A stretch of DNA of 5,232 nucleotides from a virus (IMGVR_UViG_2690316188_000006); one strand, 5' to 3'. Counted from the stretch's first letter, positions 136 through 5,232 are shown. The notes: generated by a model from the sequence alone, not told the origin. Made by a program: numbers and translations.

Positions 136-193
136 AAAAAGGGCGGCAGAGCAGTCACGGAGTAAAACTGATACCGCCAAACGTCACCAGAAA
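136..193 (-). ncRNA. dicF: DicF antisense sRNA of the dicB-type operon, including its 3' intrinsic terminator
   Basis: Reverse complement of 136-193 reads TTTCTGGTGACGTTTGGCGGTATCAGTTTTACTCCGTGACTGCTCTGCCGCCCTTTTT, which matches DicF as I recall it and ends in GC-rich sequence plus a T5 run. It sits downstream of ydfC-like genes on the same strand, as in Qin. Ends are approximate. Confidence 0.7.
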
Positions 194-316
194 ATTGATA
201 ACAGAGGGCGTTGCAGCGGGGTTGTCACTTAAGCGTATGGTCAACCTGACAACCCGGTGTCCTCAACGGGGGAAGGAATAACCCCGCCATACTTACCGCC
301 GCGCCATTTCGCGGAT

Positions 317-506
317 TGCCACAACCGGAAGCGCACGGTCGACGAAAATTTAACGACAGGCTATCTATGAACCAGCTACCTCGCCGTGCGCTTTCGCGTT
401 ATGGTCTGACTTTTCATGGAAATATCCTTTCAGTAAACTGTCAGTGCCGGATGCTCACCCGTGTCCGGCGCACGCACTCCACCTCACCCGTGGAGAACTC
501 CTTAAT
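317..506. repeat. 190-bp duplicated element, copy R1 (ydfC-dicF intergenic region; putative structured processing region of the DicF precursor)
   Basis: Direct nucleotide comparison: 317-506 equals 1205-1394 except one base (417 T vs 1305 G). Contains a perfect 10-bp inverted repeat (R1 329-338 / 384-393) and a GCCGGA...TCCGGC hairpin. Confidence 0.85.
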
Positions 507-534
507 TACTAACCTTAGCTTTGTTGATTAGCTA

Positions 535-753
535 CTAACGCGGGTATGTAATCATTCTGGCAATGCTTAATGCCGCTGCTTTTTCCAGCCTGGTGATATC
601 CTGCTCCAGAGCGGACAGATTTTCAGCCTGCTTAGCTCTGGCTTCATTGGCCCATTTCAGATCCTGCGCTGCATTAATTTTCTGGTGCATCCACTCATAA
701 AGTTCATCATCGGTATAGTCTGGCGCGATGATGACGGGTTCTCGTTTCTGCAT
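535..753 (-). CDS. ydfC: YdfC-like small prophage protein (72 aa)
   Basis: ORF with GAGGAA 5 nt upstream of ATG at 753. Length and position (third gene of a three-gene cluster upstream of dicF) match Qin ydfC. Name from memory. Confidence 0.75.
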   Translation of the reverse strand: MQKREPVIIAPDYTDDELYEWMHQKINAAQDLKWANEARAKQAENLSALEQDITRLEKAAALSIARMITYPR

Positions 754-782
754 ACTGATTCCTCGCGGTGCTGTTTCGCTTA

Positions 783-911
783 TCAGCCGTTAGATTTTGC
801 CGAACTGGAAAGCGCCTGTTTAAATTCGTTGAAGCTGAGAGCTTCTTCGCCTTCGGCAAGACCTTCGAAGTATTCTTCGTAAGCCTTTTCCATGATTGTG
901 TCGAAATCCAT
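783..911 (-). CDS. ydfB: YdfB-like small acidic protein (42 aa, MDFDTIMEKAYEEYFEGLAEGEEALSFNEFKQALSSSAKSNG)
   Basis: Not in the ORF track (too short). I translated it by hand: ATG at 911-909 preceded by AGGTGAGTG, stop TGA at 785-783. Its start lies 2 nt past the ydfA stop (tight coupling). 42 aa equals the length of K-12 YdfB. Confidence 0.6.
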   Translation of the reverse strand: MDFDTIMEKAYEEYFEGLAEGEEALSFNEFKQALSSSAKSNG

Positions 912-912
912 A

Positions 913-1068
913 TCACTCACCTGAGTTTCTTTCCAGCCAGCGACGGGCACCATTTTCGGTTTTAAACGTTTTGCTTTTGGTATACGTCATCGCGGTGAAC
1001 GTACCGTCCTGGTTGGGAAACACGCCGTACACCAGAGATTCGTTGTTGCCAAGATCGATAGTATCCAT
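913..1068 (-). CDS. ydfA: YdfA-like (DUF1391-type) small prophage protein, 51 aa from the internal ATG; the in-frame ORF extends to 1149 (78 aa)
   Basis: Internal ATG at 1068-1066 has GAGG 5 nt upstream, and the 51-aa product matches K-12 YdfA length. The upstream ATG at 1149 has GAGG at a 9-nt spacing. True start is uncertain. Confidence 0.7.
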   Translation of the reverse strand: MDTIDLGNNESLVYGVFPNQDGTFTAMTYTKSKTFKTENGARRWLERNSGE

Positions 1069-1204
1069 GTTGACCTCATTTCCCCTTAACGCCGGGGTAG
1101 CGGAACAAAAACCTGCTGCATAGTTATTAAAGTTGAACCCTGCCGTCATGTTCTTACGCCTCGGGCTGGCTACTTAACCCCTGACCACTGCCTGGTAACT
1201 CGAA

Positions 1205-1394
1205 TGCCACAACCGGAAGCGCACGGTCGACGAAAATTTAACGACAGGCTATCTATGAACCAGCTACCTCGCCGTGCGCTTTCGCGTTATGGTCTGACTT
1301 TTCAGGGAAATATCCTTTCAGTAAACTGTCAGTGCCGGATGCTCACCCGTGTCCGGCGCACGCACTCCACCTCACCCGTGGAGAACTCCTTAAT
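1205..1394. repeat. 190-bp duplicated element, copy R2 (ectopic copy between orf92 and ydfA)
   Basis: 189/190 identical to R1. Left edge abuts the 134-bp ydfA leader identity block at 1204/1205. To the right, similarity to the R1 flank decays gradually over about 15 bp. Confidence 0.85.
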
Positions 1395-1416
1395 CACCAA
1401 CCCTCAGGAGGGTGAA

Positions 1417-1692
1417 ATGTCGACTGAAAATGATGAAATCATTAACTCCCTGATACGCCAGATTAATAATTTTGATAAAGCATTGCAACATGCTGCGGCG
1501 CGTAGTGATATAACTCTTTTAGCAATTTCATTTCTTGCATCTGTTATGGATAAAAATGAAGTCGTACGACAGAGTCTTGTTGATTATATCGACTCGCTTC
1601 AACCCGGCACTTTCAATCATGAGAGCTTCAATCATGAGAAAGAGCATGTTAAGTCTGTAATTAATTCTCTTATTTTGAATCAAAAGAATTAA
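1417..1692 (+). CDS. Hypothetical protein orf92 (92 aa), unknown function
   Basis: ATG at 1417 with AGGAGG 5 nt upstream, stop TAA at 1690-1692. AT-rich relative to neighbours. Predicted helical with no obvious transmembrane segment. The ORF-track entry 1204-1692 is the same frame extended upstream through R2. Confidence 0.55.
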   Translation: MSTENDEIINSLIRQINNFDKALQHAAARSDITLLAISFLASVMDKNEVVRQSLVDYIDSLQPGTFNHESFNHEKEHVKSVINSLILNQKN

Positions 1693-1990
1693 TGCTTTTT
1701 GTTGCAAAGTAATTTTCAAGGGGTTCTATTCGAATCCCTTTCTTTTTCATTAACAAGCCAAACCCCTTATCAATGATGTCCATTAGATCCAGGAAGTATT
1801 TTTCATGTAAATCCTGGTTATCAGAGAGCTGCTTCTCTTCGTACAGCCCGATAAAGGCTCGGCGTACGTTACCGGATATATTGTCGATGGTTTCTTTTTC
1901 TACGGTACTCAGGTCAAGAGTCGCCAGTTGAGAGCGAACCACATTCGATGCCATTTCCTGGAATGGTACTGGTAAATCTTTAAATTCCAT
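1670..1990 (-). CDS. Hypothetical protein orf106 (106 aa; 110 aa if started at ATG 2002), unknown function
   Basis: ATG at 1990 with GAGG 7 nt upstream. The alternative ATG at 2002 overlaps the ydfA-copy-2 stop (TGATG). Stop at 1672-1670. Its 3' end overlaps orf92 by 23 bp (1670-1692), convergently. Confidence 0.6.
   Translation of the reverse strand: MEFKDLPVPFQEMASNVVRSQLATLDLSTVEKETIDNISGNVRRAFIGLYEEKQLSDNQDLHEKYFLDLMDIIDKGFGLLMKKKGIRIEPLENYFATKSINSFDSK
1720..1747 (+). terminator. Putative intrinsic terminator for orf92
   Basis: GGGGTTC / GAATCCC 7-bp stem (one G-U pair) with 5-nt loop, followed by TTTCTTTTT, starting 28 nt after the orf92 stop. Lies inside the orf106 coding region on the other strand. 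Confidence 0.35.
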
Positions 1991-2001
1991 CGTCAACCTC
2001 A

Positions 2002-2154
2002 TCAGTCAGTGTTTCTGGTTAACCAGCGACGCGCGCCAGCTTCAGTTTTAAACGTTTTGCTTCTGGTATATGTCATCGCGGTAAACGTGCCGTCCTGGTT
2101 GGGAAACACGCCGCATACCAGAGATTCGTTGTTGCCAAGCTCGATAGTATCCAT
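2002..2154 (-). CDS. YdfA-like protein, second diverged copy (50 aa from the internal ATG; in-frame ORF extends to 2235, 77 aa)
   Basis: Paralog of the 913-1068 gene. The 5' 134 bp (2157-2290) is identical to 1071-1204, and divergence increases toward the 3' end. Same RBS arrangement as copy 1. Confidence 0.7.
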   Translation of the reverse strand: MDTIELGNNESLVCGVFPNQDGTFTAMTYTRSKTFKTEAGARRWLTRNTD

Positions 2155-2332
2155 GCTGACCTCATTTCCCCTTAACGCCGGGGTAGCGGAACAAAAACCT
2201 GCTGCATAGTTATTAAAGTTGAACCCTGCCGTCATGTTCTTACGCCTCGGGCTGGCTACTTAACCCCTGACCACTGCCTGGTAACTCGAAGTATTGCCCT
2301 GCATTCTGTGGGGTGGGGTGGGTGGCAGGTAT

Positions 2333-2361
2333 ATAATGTACTTTGCGTTCATTGTTGTAAA
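2333..2361 (-). promoter_or_regulatory. Putative leftward early promoter (pL/dicBp analog) with operator-like GTAC inverted repeats
   Basis: On the minus strand: TTTACA (2361-2356), 17-nt spacer, CATTAT (2338-2333). Overlapped by GTACTTT..AAAGTAC inverted repeat (2338-2366) and ATGTAC motifs also found in the cI-cro intergenic region. Position is right for driving the leftward operon. Confidence 0.4.
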
Positions 2362-2451
2362 GTACTTTTAGTACATTCTGTGTGTAAAAAAATGAGATGG
2401 GATAAAGTGAAGCACAAACCCGGAGGAAGGCGCTACCGGATTTATGCTGGT

Positions 2452-2871
2452 TTAAGAGGCTTTTTGTTTTTTCTTTCGTGCTAACTCTTCGTAAATTGCA
2501 TTGTACTTCTGTTTTTTCTCTTCAAGAGTTTTTAAAAGTTCATCTGTCTCACTGTCAGGGAGCTCGTCCAGAAGGTCAATGATGATTTTTTGTCTTGGAT
2601 TTAACTCCTGATAGAAACGTACCTGTCCACTTTCTTCTGTATCCTCTCCCAAAAGATAGGTTGGTGTTGTTCCTATTAGTGTTGCTAATTCCCTTAATTT
2701 CTCCCGGCGAGGAATTGTTTCGCCATTAAACCATTTGCTAACCGCTTTTGGTGTTAATTTCATTCGACGGGCAATTTCTGCCTGCCTTCCATGTTGTTCA
2801 TAACCAGCATTTTCACAGGCTAGCGCAAGCCTACTGGCGAACTCTTTACGCGCTTTATCTTCATGAACCAT
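2452..2871 (-). CDS. Prophage repressor, XRE-family HTH (CI/DicA-like), 139 aa
   Basis: N-terminal HTH_XRE-like segment (QAEIARRMKLTPKAVSKWFNGETIP) and an acidic/helical C-terminal tail reminiscent of DicA. Divergent from the cro-like gene. No SD before ATG 2871 (leaderless-type start). Confidence 0.85.
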   Translation of the reverse strand: MVHEDKARKEFASRLALACENAGYEQHGRQAEIARRMKLTPKAVSKWFNGETIPRREKLRELATLIGTTPTYLLGEDTEESGQVRFYQELNPRQKIIIDLLDELPDSETDELLKTLEEKKQKYNAIYEELARKKKQKAS

Positions 2872-2950
2872 AAGTTCAATGATATTCGCTCTTGAATGTA
2901 CTGTCAGTTCTGTTATAGCATGTACTCAAAGTTCACATTGTGAGGGTGAT
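2872..2950. promoter_or_regulatory. Divergent overlapping promoter/operator region (pRM-like leftward, pR-like rightward)
   Basis: Minus strand: CTGACA (2907-2902), 17 nt, TATCAT (2884-2879), 7 nt, ATG, predicting a leaderless repressor mRNA. Plus strand: TTGAAT (2892-2897), 16 nt, extended -10 TGtTATAGC (2911-2919). ATGTACT repeats at 2896-2902 and 2920-2926; near-palindromes ACTGTCAGT (2900-2908) and CACATTGTG. Confidence 0.5.
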
Positions 2951-3205
2951 ATGAACCAGAAAACACTTGAAGATGTAATCAAAACTGTTCGCGTTGCTGT
3001 TGTGGCCGACGTTTGTGGTGTCAGCCAAAGAGCAATCTATAAATGGATGGATAACGGAAAATTGCCTCGCACAGAATATACCGGCGAAACAAATTACGCT
3101 GAAAAAATCGCTCTTGCATCAAACGGATTATTTTCTGCCGATGCAATTTTAACTATTGGCAGGAATAAAACTACTACGAAAAAGCTGATGGGAGTTGATT
3201 CATGA
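2951..3205 (+). CDS. Cro-like / YdaS-family HTH regulator (84 aa)
   Basis: ATG at 2951 with GAGGGTGAT upstream. HTH-like segment VADVCGVSQRAIYKWMDNGKLP. First rightward gene opposite the repressor. The longer ORF-track start (2879) lacks an RBS and would overlap the operators. Confidence 0.8.
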   Translation: MNQKTLEDVIKTVRVAVVADVCGVSQRAIYKWMDNGKLPRTEYTGETNYAEKIALASNGLFSADAILTIGRNKTTTKKLMGVDS

Positions 3206-3627
3206 AAATCAAGCATGAACACATCCGCATGGCGATGAATGCCTGGGCGCATCCGGACGGCGAAAAAGTACCGGCTGCGAAAATTACCAAAGCATATTTC
3301 GAGCTGGGAATGACGTTCCCGGAACTGTATGACGACAGCCATCCGGAAGCCCTGGCTCGCAATACTCAGAAAATTTTCCGCTGGGTGGAGAAAGACACCC
3401 CTGATGCGGTTAAAAAAATTCAGGCGTTGTTACCAGCTATCGAAAAAGCAATGCCACCTCTGCTGGTGGCCCGAATGCGCAGTCATAGCTCAGCCTATTT
3501 TCGGGAACTAGTGGAGACGCGGGAACGACTGGTGAGAGACGCTGATGATTTTGTCGCAGTGGCGATCGCTGGTTTCAACCAGATGAATCGTGGTGGCCCT
3601 GCAGGAAATATTGTGGCTGTGCATTGA
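3202..3627 (+). CDS. ydaT: YdaT-like protein (141 aa), proposed CII-analog regulator / formerly called a toxin
   Basis: Start MKIKHEHI... resembles Rac YdaT as I recall it. ATG 3202 overlaps the cro-like stop (ATGA, 4-bp overlap). Position is second gene of the rightward operon. Confidence 0.8.
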   Translation: MKIKHEHIRMAMNAWAHPDGEKVPAAKITKAYFELGMTFPELYDDSHPEALARNTQKIFRWVEKDTPDAVKKIQALLPAIEKAMPPLLVARMRSHSSAYFRELVETRERLVRDADDFVAVAIAGFNQMNRGGPAGNIVAVH

Positions 3628-3698
3628 CTCGCAATATTCATACCGGATCACTTCCGGCAATTTGTGAGTAAAAAGATTCGGTATCAAAAGAGGTGAGT

Positions 3699-4769
3699 AT
3701 GGCTAACGCCTGGCTCAGATTATGGCATGACATGCCAAATGACCCTAAGTGGCGAACAATTGCCAGGGTGTCAGGGCAGCCAATTGCAACAGTGATGGCA
3801 GTGTATATCCACCTCCTGGTGAGCGCGTCACGAAATGTCACGCGAGGTCACATTGATGTCACGACAGAAGATTTGGCAAGTGCGCTCGACGTGACAGAAG
3901 AGGTAATTGATTCAATTTTGCAGACGATGCAGGGGCGGGTACTTGATGGTGATTTAATCACTGGATGGGAAAAACGCCAGGTGCTTAAAGAGGACAACGG
4001 CAATATTTCGCAAACCGCAAAATCTCCTGCAGAGCGCAAGAGGGCGCAGCGAGAGAGGGAAAGAAAGCGGGAACAAAATGGCGATTGTCACGGCGCGTCA
4101 CGAAATGTCACGCACATGTCACGACGAGTCACGACAGATAAAGATACAGATAAAGATACAGATCAAGAAGATCAAAACACTATGGTCCATGGCGTAAAAA
4201 ACGCCACGAACCAGGCAGGGGATGTTCAGACCGTCAATCCTGGTCAGCCAGCAGGCACGACACCGGAAGCCGATTCAGCGTATGCGCTGAAAGCCGATTC
4301 GGGCGCTGTGCAGCAGGTGATGACCGCAAGGCCGGAGCAATCACACCAACTGCAGCAGCCCGAAGCCGATTCCGCCATTCAGCGGGAAGCCGATCGGGTA
4401 GTCCCGGAAAACACCGGTCAGTCTGTGGGACGAGTGGATTATCCGGATGTGTTCGAACAGGTCTGGCGGGAGTACCCGTTGCGTGCCGGAGCAAACCCGA
4501 AGAAATCCGCTTTCAGTGCCTGGAAGGCCAGATTACGCGAGGGGGTGCCACCAGAGGCCATGCTGGATGGCGTGAGGCGTTACGCAAGATACTTGGCGGC
4601 TACCGGGAAAGCGGGAACGGAATTTGTTCAGCGAGCGACGACGTTTTTTGGACCGGACCGGAATTTTGAGAACCCCTGGTTTCTCCCGGTAAGCGGCACG
4701 AACAACCAGCGTTGTGTGAATCATATTACTGAACCGGATAACGAAATTCCGCCGGGCTTCAGGGGGTAA
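3699..4769 (+). CDS. Phage replisome organizer / replication initiator (lambda O functional analog), 356 aa
   Basis: N-terminus AWLRLWHDMPNDPKWRTIARV... resembles the phage replisome-organizer N-terminal domain. Basic linker ERKRAQRERERKRE. Internal iteron arrays. AGAGG 5 nt before ATG 3699 (the track's GTG at 3693 is an alternative). Stop TAA at 4767-4769. Confidence 0.85.
   Translation: MANAWLRLWHDMPNDPKWRTIARVSGQPIATVMAVYIHLLVSASRNVTRGHIDVTTEDLASALDVTEEVIDSILQTMQGRVLDGDLITGWEKRQVLKEDNGNISQTAKSPAERKRAQRERERKREQNGDCHGASRNVTHMSRRVTTDKDTDKDTDQEDQNTMVHGVKNATNQAGDVQTVNPGQPAGTTPEADSAYALKADSGAVQQVMTARPEQSHQLQQPEADSAIQREADRVVPENTGQSVGRVDYPDVFEQVWREYPLRAGANPKKSAFSAWKARLREGVPPEAMLDGVRRYARYLAATGKAGTEFVQRATTFFGPDRNFENPWFLPVSGTNNQRCVNHITEPDNEIPPGFRG
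3825..3867. repeat. Iteron-like array 1: four GTCAC(G/A) repeats at 10-11 bp spacing inside the replication gene
   Basis: GTCACG at 3827, 3837, 3858 and GTCACA at 3847. 3823-3843 is a 21-bp exact copy of 4093-4113. Confidence 0.5.
4085..4174. other. Putative origin of replication: iteron array 2 (five GTCACG repeats, 10-11 bp period) followed by an AT-rich tract with a tandem 12-mer and two GATC sites
   Basis: GTCACG at 4087, 4097, 4107, 4118, 4128. Then GATAAAGATACA twice (4137-4160) and GATCAAGAAGATC. Lies in the linker region of the initiator gene, as lambda ori lies within O. Confidence 0.5.
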
Positions 4770-4809
4770 GTGTTAATTTCTGGTCATGAGGTAATTTTCA
4801 GGAGGGCTT

Positions 4810-5232
4810 GTGGCAAAAGTTTTTACACAAGAAGAGCGGGAAAAAATTAAAGGGCTGATCGTGGAATTCGTACGCCTTAACGGACGAGGCACGATTCGGC
4901 AGTTATCGGATGAAATTGGTGTCAGTCATGCGTCTGTCGGTCGTTTATGCATGGAGCTGGCCGCCAGTGGTGATGTTTACAATTCCGGTTACGGAGTATT
5001 CCCGTCTGAGCAGGCGCGCAAGGACTGGCAAAACGCCCGCAAAAAACTCTCAAGGGCAAAGCTGAAGAAACCATCTGTGGTTGATCCGGACCTTATCTGG
5101 CTATTACCAGACGGCGAAATACGCCGCTACGACAGGCGCCTAAACATAATCTGTCGCGAGTGCCGGAAGAGCGAAGCTATGCAGCGTGTACTGGCATTTT
5201 ATCAAGGAAATGTTAGGTATTTTAGACGTTAC
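4810..5232 (+). CDS. Hypothetical protein, 5' partial in window (at least 141 aa, runs off the right edge); possible winged-helix DNA-binding protein
   Basis: GTG at 4810 with AGGAGG 4 nt upstream. Open frame to the window end. Segment TIRQLSDEIGVSHASVGRLCMEL looks HTH-like. Not in the ORF track because it has no stop in the window. Confidence 0.55.
   Translation, partial: MAKVFTQEEREKIKGLIVEFVRLNGRGTIRQLSDEIGVSHASVGRLCMELAASGDVYNSGYGVFPSEQARKDWQNARKKLSRAKLKKPSVVDPDLIWLLPDGEIRRYDRRLNIICRECRKSEAMQRVLAFYQGNVRYFRRY

Follow-up and report, generated by a model that had tools for sequence, protein, structure and literature searches.

Can a single short intergenic sequence serve a prophage operon on both DNA strands, as an RNA processing site when it is read one way and as the leader of a gene when it is read the other? 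The question is raised by R, an element present in two copies in the window, which is the whole stretch of 5,232 nucleotides of viral DNA (IMGVR_UViG_2690316188_000006) analysed here, with positions counted from its first letter. An earlier note on this DNA had suggested that one sequence may be used on both strands; the use of both strands is retained here, but it is divided between two adjacent sub-modules, 1207-1292 for the minus strand and 1293-1416 for the plus strand. The preferred reading, held with modest confidence and at little more than an even chance, is that R is a conserved non-coding mosaic joint of the Qin-like early-left operon, whose two parts belong to opposite strands: stem A, a hairpin of the leftward RNA, and the segment 1293-1416, which would belong to a rightward one.

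How much is made of DicF and DicB, two prophage products that are toxic, depends on the processing of the operon RNA. An RNase III site defined as a specific hairpin offers a concrete target for mutation, one that many lambdoid phages conserve; in some strains the operon contains a second copy of this hairpin. The plus-strand reading, if true, would add a conserved cassette, present in a large fraction of E. coli genomes, for the expression of small prophage genes that are swapped for one another and whose functions are unknown.

Gene order and duplication in the window

The window covers the immunity and early-left region of a Qin-like lambdoid prophage, in which a dicB-type operon is read leftward, on the minus strand. 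The features on which the argument depends are the following.

141-192, minus strand: DicF sRNA (Rfam RF00039, 76.7 bits)
314-523: R1, the copy of R at the canonical place between ydfC and DicF, arranged alike in K-12
535-753, minus strand: ydfC
783-953, minus strand: ydfB
within 913-1149, minus strand: ydfA
925-1204, minus strand: duplicated leader and ydfA segment, 94% identical to 2011-2290, adjoining R2
1202-1411: R2, the second copy of R, between orf92 and the duplicated leader and ydfA, non-coding
1417-1692, plus strand: orf92, 91 aa (PGAP WP_000102678.1), with R2 immediately upstream
2452-2871, minus strand: dicA-like repressor gene
plus strand: dicC-like gene

Two direct repeats, R and the leader/ydfA segment, lie in the left half of the window, and the operon thus carries ydfA twice and R twice. 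That R is a repeated element, as the earlier note had recognised, is borne out by an identity of 98% between 314-514 and 1202-1402; the two copies are identical over 317-416 and 1205-1304, differ once at 417/1305 and diverge past 1394. Compared with K-12 over 217 nt, R1 differs at 4 positions. Both copies are situated between the dicB-type promoter region and DicF, and hence in the leftward transcript to which the earlier note had assigned them, R1 between ydfC and DicF and R2 upstream of the second leader-ydfA.

The undisrupted gene order of strain MCJCHV-1 (L009) is ydfA-ydfB-ydfC-orf106(-)-orf92(+)-R-DicF-dicB, and that of K-12 is ydfA-ydfB-ydfC-R-DicF-dicB. Judging from the repeats and from these two orders, the window is a recombinant, in which a block ydfA'-orf110-orf92-R2 stands before a block leader-ydfA-ydfB-ydfC-R1-DicF, with the joint at 1202-1204. 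By the same reading of the sequence, R2 is a second copy made by recombination, which arrived with the duplicated leader and ydfA. A single aligned place covering at least 80% of the window occurs in 114 complete E. coli genomes. Farther to the right, clusters of GTCACG-type repeats that resemble origin iterons lie at 3827-3865 and 4087-4135, within a replisome-organizer ORF (3693-4769).

Distribution and non-coding nature of R

R-like sequence is present in 3,549 of 5,426 complete E. coli genomes, where the median number of places is one. It also occurs in 24 phage records, and viral contigs scanned by pattern yielded 72 distinct full or partial variants of R, plus further lineages. Among the variants R is modular, being composed of stem A (1207-1292), hairpin B with its flank (1293-1331) and module C (1332-1383) with a tail. 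Of 99 distinct contexts, 42 are K-12-like, with the 3' end of ydfC to the right of module C. A scan of genome contigs with the 14-nt pattern CCGTGGAGAACTCC returned chance matches only, in unrelated bacteria, and DicF used as an anchor in the phage collection retrieved E. coli phages only, at an identity of at least 98%.

This distribution, together with the reading frames, bears on whether R could be a MITE-like mobile repeat or a protein-coding unit, an explanation that can hardly be credited. The occurrence of two copies within 5.2 kb invites the first of these ideas, and the second is invited by a plus-strand ORF across R (71 aa or 162 aa), which is open in 48 of 66 near-identical variants and annotated as a hypothetical protein in some records. 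The frame is closed, however, in 17 of the 66, substitutions are spread evenly over the three codon positions, indels break the frame, and searches of Pfam and PHROG gave no match to the R-spanning ORF. On the first three of these counts R is non-coding, as far as its variants tell, and a protein-coding gene across it is refuted for practical purposes. As to mobility, R is confined to one syntenic position, 5' of DicF, and its median number of places in a genome is one, the second copy came with the duplicated leader and ydfA, and a reading of the ends of R revealed neither terminal inverted repeats nor target duplications.

Known RNA families and signals were also compared with R. A put-type antiterminator of the HK022 kind was rejected by sequence comparison, as R has no match longer than 10 nt to the HK022 nun/cI/cro region (placed by flanking annotation), and a scan of the window for terminator-like sites found none within R on either strand. 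An Rfam search of 194-5232 on both strands, at E values up to 1, gave no match in R; the Rfam matches in the window are DicF and a partial STnc100 only, both outside R. The STnc100 match (RF02076, 28.5 bits) occupies 1-139 on the minus strand, in the DicF-dicB spacer, and stops at the end of the window, while a full-length sub-threshold match of 30.8 bits is found at the same place in an STEC1589-type phage (L002 2239-2446, minus strand).

Stem A as a conserved hairpin of the leftward RNA

The proximal part of each copy of R folds into a long hairpin.

1207-1292, minus strand: stem A of R2, a 22-bp interrupted hairpin with arms 1292-1269 and 1230-1207 and loop 1268-1231 in the minus RNA; predicted RNase III site
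319-404, minus strand: stem A of R1; probable RNase III site, placed by fragment length, from PMC10448788 and coordinate mapping through K-12

The starting point of the earlier note was a perfect 10-bp inverted repeat at 1217-1226 (AAGCGCACGG) and 1272-1281 (CCGTGCGCTT), which is present and has its R1 twin at 329-338/384-393. Taken alone, this repeat is within chance, as 12 of 60 dinucleotide shuffles of the window hold one (at least 10 bp, with a loop of at most 60 nt), but it constitutes the core of the 22-bp stem, made of 7+2+10+3 base pairs between 1207-1230 and 1269-1292 and the same in sequence throughout in R1 and R2. Stem A is the minimum-energy fold, at -37.4 kcal/mol on the minus RNA, and 0 of 200 shuffles are as good (z -3.5 on the minus and -4.2 on the plus strand). 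With more than 20 bp, or about two helical turns, of mostly Watson-Crick pairs, it has on the minus RNA the length of an RNase III hairpin.

Among relatives, variable columns make up 17% and 58% of the two arms and 92% of the loop, which takes several unrelated sequences. A single compensatory change is seen in the stem, from G-C to A-U in L105. One-sided variants at the pairs 1208-1291, 1209-1290, 1220-1278, 1223-1275 and 1228-1271 give G.U on the minus strand and A.C on the plus strand, as does the K-12 difference at 386 in stem A of R1, and the variant at 1221-1277, which gives G.U on the plus strand, is the sole opposite case; the asymmetry rests on a handful of independent events, and the paired cells amount to 92.5% on the plus and 93.0% on the minus strand. 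The pairing of stem A thus appears to have been kept in evolution on the minus, transcribed strand. Of what the earlier note had expected from folding and covariance, the paired arms are kept and the G.U pairs fall mostly on the minus strand, but compensatory changes are few among homologs that are 81-100% alike. In one viral contig (L013 1651-1870), stem A is deleted between two flanking TTTCGCG direct repeats.

RNase III and the DicF precursor

An RNase III processing site of the DicF precursor in the E. coli K-12 Qin prophage was reportedly described by Faubladier, Cam and Bouche in 1990. In the more recent K-12 work of Ragunathan et al. (2023; PMC10448788), a 190-nt DicF species is gone in an rnc mutant and builds up once RNase E is inactivated; its 5' end was located by primer extension and is ascribed by the authors to RNase III, with a cut at position 813/814 in the paper's own numbering. 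In the same study RT-PCR spans ydfA to dicF, and the rnc mutant loses the transcript bands that contain ydfA (PMC10448788). The published mature species of 53 nt has its 5' end one base beyond the Rfam match, at window position 193, and therefore corresponds to 141-193.

Counting 190 nt back from the 3' end of DicF leads to position 1424 of the K-12 locus, that is to about 330-331 in the window, which falls in the 10-bp core of the 3' arm of R1 stem A; an error of 10 nt either way stays in the arm. On this placement by fragment length, the 5' end that the 190-nt DicF precursor owes to RNase III would lie in the 3' arm of R1 stem A. Across relatives, stem A is always located 5' of a DicF-family sRNA. 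The minus-strand processing role that the earlier note had proposed for R is supported, and it is in essence the already known RNase III site of the DicF precursor.

Since the stem of R2 is identical to that of R1, stem A of R2 is predicted, by analogy, to be a second RNase III site in the operon transcript of this strain, cut near 1218-1219. The upstream leftward mRNA probably keeps a protective 3' hairpin after the cut, in the manner of phage T7, and the loss of ydfA transcripts in the rnc mutant fits such a stabilising 3' hairpin on the upstream message.

Several observations concern DicF and its surroundings in their own right. In K-12, the Term-seq data of the PMC7815308 supplement list an abundant 3' end that coincides exactly with the RNase E site 5' of DicF (window about 196, minus strand; MG1655 1,649,368/9, plus strand), where the upstream RNase E product accumulates; it is possibly the piece of about 135 nt that extends from the RNase III to the RNase E site. 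The region of the DicF 5' seed and RNase E site (185-199) and a segment of ydfC (673-687) form a 15-nt inverted repeat in the same leftward transcript, complementary at 14 of 15 positions; by estimate, 5.2 kb of sequence would contain about 0.6 such pairs by chance. A divergent DicF-like sRNA with its own terminator is found in L002 (2436-2486, minus strand; 35.6 bits against a gathering score of 48, E 3.8e-6), upstream of kil. It starts about 15 nt after stem A, without the 124-nt linker, and RNase III alone might make its 5' end; its hosts are N-dependent phages of the STEC1589/PhiR5_2 type.

Strand-specific structure in the distal half of R

Beyond stem A, the segment 1293-1416 contains three small hairpins, a candidate promoter and a tail that leads to the start codon of orf92.

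1293-1306: hairpin B, TCTGA CTTT TCAGG
1299-1327, plus strand: candidate sigma-70 promoter TTTTCA-17-TAAACT, the best PWM match in the 270 nt upstream of orf92
1332-1342/1349-1359, plus strand: hairpin C1, 11 bp with three G.U pairs and loop TCACCC, containing GCCGGA/TCCGGC
1365-1370/1378-1383, plus strand: hairpin C2, CTCCAC/GTGGAG with a 7-nt loop
1386-1419, plus strand: leader tail, with CTCCT at 1386-1390, anti-SD UCACC/CC at 1394-1402, SD AGGAGG at 1406-1411 and ATG at 1417-1419

The smaller hairpins that the earlier note had listed are found here, GCCGGA/TCCGGC within C1 and CCAC/GTGG within C2. Module C is made of C1 (1332-1359) and C2 (1365-1383), each with CTCACCCGTG, followed by the conserved tail. 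The pairing of these hairpins depends on the strand that is read: paired cells amount to 97.3% on the plus strand and 86.5% on the minus strand for hairpin B, to 99.0% and 72.0% for C1, whose three G.U pairs become A.C mismatches on the minus strand, and to 100% and 98.7% for C2; the same 45 base pairs counted on both strands give 95.6% for the plus and 87.9% for the minus strand. Compared with shuffles, C1 and C2 together reach a z of -4.0 on the plus strand (1 of 200 as good) and of -0.7 on the minus strand (45 of 200), and in each of the 13 variants tested the plus strand gains more stability over shuffles than the minus strand does.

Variation among relatives follows the same hairpins. Paired columns of module C are 32% variable and the 5-nt linker between its hairpins 80%; the arms of C2 are near-invariant, with four of six pairs that never vary and two that change on one side, and its loop varies. 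The pair 1293-1306 of hairpin B is read on the plus strand as U.G (33), C-G (23) or U-A (10). Pairs changed on both sides number one on the plus and three on the minus strand across the whole of R, a weak covariation explained by the likeness of the homologs (81-100%). As modelled, the structure of the distal half is specific to the plus strand and kept among relatives, with minimal true covariation.

The possibility that the whole of R acts in the leftward RNA only, with C2, C1 and B as 3' stabilisers or as Hfq/RNase E elements of the ydfABC (or orf110) message and of the DicF precursor, is decidedly improbable in the light of these figures. It draws on the fact that the leftward transcript always includes R, downstream of the last ORF read in that direction, that C2 pairs equally well on either strand, that module C is kept in loci devoid of a plus-strand ORF and that the consensus fold energy is lower on the minus strand (-42.3 versus -35.6). 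This lower total is, however, accounted for by stem A; on the minus strand C1 and C2 are no better than shuffles and C1 loses three pairs, and such a role would leave unexplained the fixed distance of the SD to unrelated start codons, which is described below.

The candidate promoter, with its -10 hexamer TAAACT at 1322, is one of the ten best of some 52,000 placements scored across the window (top 0.02%); it agrees with the consensus at 8 of 12 positions and was missed by a consensus scan. L024 keeps the two hexamers, with a different spacer between them. The plus-strand start is predicted at about 1332-1334, which are the first paired bases of C1. A search of published Cappable-seq supplements and Term-seq tables gave no plus-strand start or RNA end in R and no usable RNase III site. 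The one experimental hint comes from K-12, where a Rho-dependent termination region antisense to ydfA/ydfB (PMC7815308 supplement) shows some plus-strand transcription, the start point of which it does not locate. Modules B and C are equally conserved in the 42 of 99 contexts of K-12 type, which have no plus-strand ORF, and six contexts have a plus-strand ORF on the upstream side of module C, so that this module is not always a 5' leader.

The leader tail and the Shine-Dalgarno sequence

The SD AGGAGG stands five bases before the ATG of orf92, and in the window it is predicted to pair with UCACC/CC at 1394-1402. It is partly sequestered in every type of cargo gene, with a mean P(unpaired) of 0.06-0.47. 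The earlier note had instead suggested that a CTCCT at 1387-1391 could pair with the orf92 SD; the motif is actually at 1386-1390. In the window the probabilities of its pairs with the SD add up to 0.02, against a possible 5, and this pairing is the minimum-energy fold in L002, L024, L026 and L105 only. CTCCT is equally conserved in loci that have no SD, so that pairing with the SD alone cannot explain it, and a riboregulator that would sequester the SD by way of CTCCT has been discarded for the window on both counts.

orf92 and its exchangeable counterparts

A homolog of orf92 in L026, with 84% DNA identity, is of equal length and without indels, and the two differ by 13 synonymous and 19 non-synonymous codon differences; orf92 looks coding. 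Its protein family is found in E. coli only, at an identity of at least 76%. A terminator-like site lies beyond the gene at 1718-1740, of a kind that is not enriched over shuffles. As there is no other plus-strand gene upstream, orf92, if real, needs a promoter from R or from close by.

The leader and SD are followed by a plus-strand ORF at a fixed SD-ATG distance in 43 of the 99 distinct contexts. These cargo ORFs, of 63-92 aa, belong by BLASTP to at least five unrelated families, and the change of sequence begins at the start codon. Four of the families have full-length PHROG matches of unknown function; PADLOC and Pfam gave nothing above cut-off for the cargo ORFs. Of the role of R2 as leader of orf92, as the earlier note had it, the position immediately upstream and the reuse of the leader and SD before at least five ORF families can be retained; the plus-strand role itself we infer.

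In six contexts stem A and module C are separated by the insertion of a larger plus-strand ORF (148-191 aa); these ORFs include the following.

L031 2653-3228, plus strand: inserted ORF
L075 7078-7638, plus strand: inserted ORF
L251 1030-1476, plus strand: inserted ORF

The inserted protein of L031 has a weak, sub-threshold SLATT_5 match (E 0.003), and in L251 a perfect TATAAT is found immediately to the right of stem A. At their 3' ends, orf92 (plus) and orf110 (minus) overlap convergently by 23 nt (1670-1692), and convergent overlaps of 23-68 nt recur with other cargo ORFs (window, L001, L009, L005, L253). The minus-strand partners in these overlaps share an N-terminal domain of about 55 aa (MEFKDLP...AF.GLY) and have unrelated C-termini, which places a mosaic breakpoint inside the orf110-family gene.

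These arrangements give substance to a serious rival, in which the distal half is neutral: only stem A would be functional, and 1293-1411 would be a passively conserved recombination linker, with no part to play as RNA on either strand, next to which genes of the orf92 type have landed. Its persistence would be due to the exchange of modules among lambdoid phages, by homologous recombination at islands of this sort, and to the recent common ancestry of all copies. Although judged unlikely, such a linker would suit copies that are all 81-100% identical and confined to E. coli phages and prophages, a homology that breaks sharply after 1394, at the cargo ATG and inside the orf110-family gene, and a covariation that is statistically weak. 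It would also suit the three neighbour arrangements in which module C occurs and its retention in K-12-type loci that have no plus-strand ORF. It does not sit well with the difference in variability between the pairs of module C and the linker between them, with the strand-specific stability on which all thirteen variants agree, with the C-G/U-A/U.G exchange in hairpin B, or with an SD that is kept, at its distance from the ATG, before unrelated ORFs.

A model for the two parts of R

Under the preferred reading of R as a joint of two parts, RNase III would cut the 3' arm of stem A in the leftward polycistronic RNA and release the DicF-containing 190-nt precursor, which RNase E trims to 53 nt. 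The cut would leave the upstream mRNA with a protective 3' hairpin, comparable to that of the phage T7 intercistronic signals, and the stem of R2, placed between orf110/orf92 and the second leader-ydfA, would add a second RNase III cut.

All the plus-strand steps (promoter, leader, stabilisation and damping) are deduced from sequence features. Transcription from the weak sigma-70 promoter TTTTCA-17-TAAACT would begin at about 1332-1334, where C1 has its foot, and the RNA would extend through C2 and past the partly sequestered SD to orf92. The hairpins at its 5' terminus would stabilise this orf92 mRNA, and the anti-SD pairing would damp its translation. Since orf92 and the dicB operon are convergent, their transcripts would also be antisense to one another. 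A plus-strand promoter-leader of this sort is plausible, a reasonable deduction of an ordinary kind.

A bolder reading, put forward tentatively and thought unlikely to hold as a whole, is that the promoter-leader cassette drives a hypervariable slot for small proteins, which the RNase III hairpin and sense-antisense pairing would couple to the DicF/DicB operon. The slot would hold at least five unrelated families and larger inserts, one of them weakly SLATT-like, expressed from the prophage in a direction convergent with the DicF/DicB operon and antisense to it. When the division-inhibitor operon is derepressed, the accessory gene would be silenced, and the reverse.

Comparison with known systems

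The nearest known counterpart is the RNase III site of DicF in the K-12 Qin prophage, to which R1 is near-identical in sequence and which is likewise situated between ydfC and dicF; the hairpin of stem A itself and its conservation across phages are not described in PMC10448788. Compared with this site, R2 is an extra copy, after which comes a second leader-ydfA and not DicF.

In phage T7, RNase III signals of the R1.1 type are intercistronic hairpins with an internal loop that are cut once on the 3' side. Stem A is alike in being irregular, some 20 bp long and interrupted by an internal mismatch and by a bulge, in lying between cistrons of an early operon, in the mapping (by length) of the end to the 3' arm and in an upstream message that is apparently stabilised by RNase III; there is no sequence relationship between the two.

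In phage lambda, the oop RNA and the cII message form an antisense pair that is cut by RNase III. A short rightward RNA from R1 in K-12-type loci would similarly be antisense to the 3' end of ydfC; on the plus strand, the terminator-like site at 558-575 is a weak one, of a class that shows no enrichment over shuffles. For the leader, the comparison is with the 5' UTR of ompA, in which a 5'-terminal stem-loop acts as an mRNA stabiliser: the predicted start at the first paired base of C1, followed by a second hairpin and then by the SD, would give the R leader a like design.

Phage morons are independently transcribed accessory genes inserted in lambdoid operons. orf92 and its counterparts resemble them in being small ORFs, for the most part AT-richer, that are oriented against the early-left operon in which they lie, and orf92 has its own terminator-like site and putative promoter. 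Unlike morons, at least five unrelated ORF families are found on one conserved leader and SD; here the signal is fixed and the gene is exchanged.
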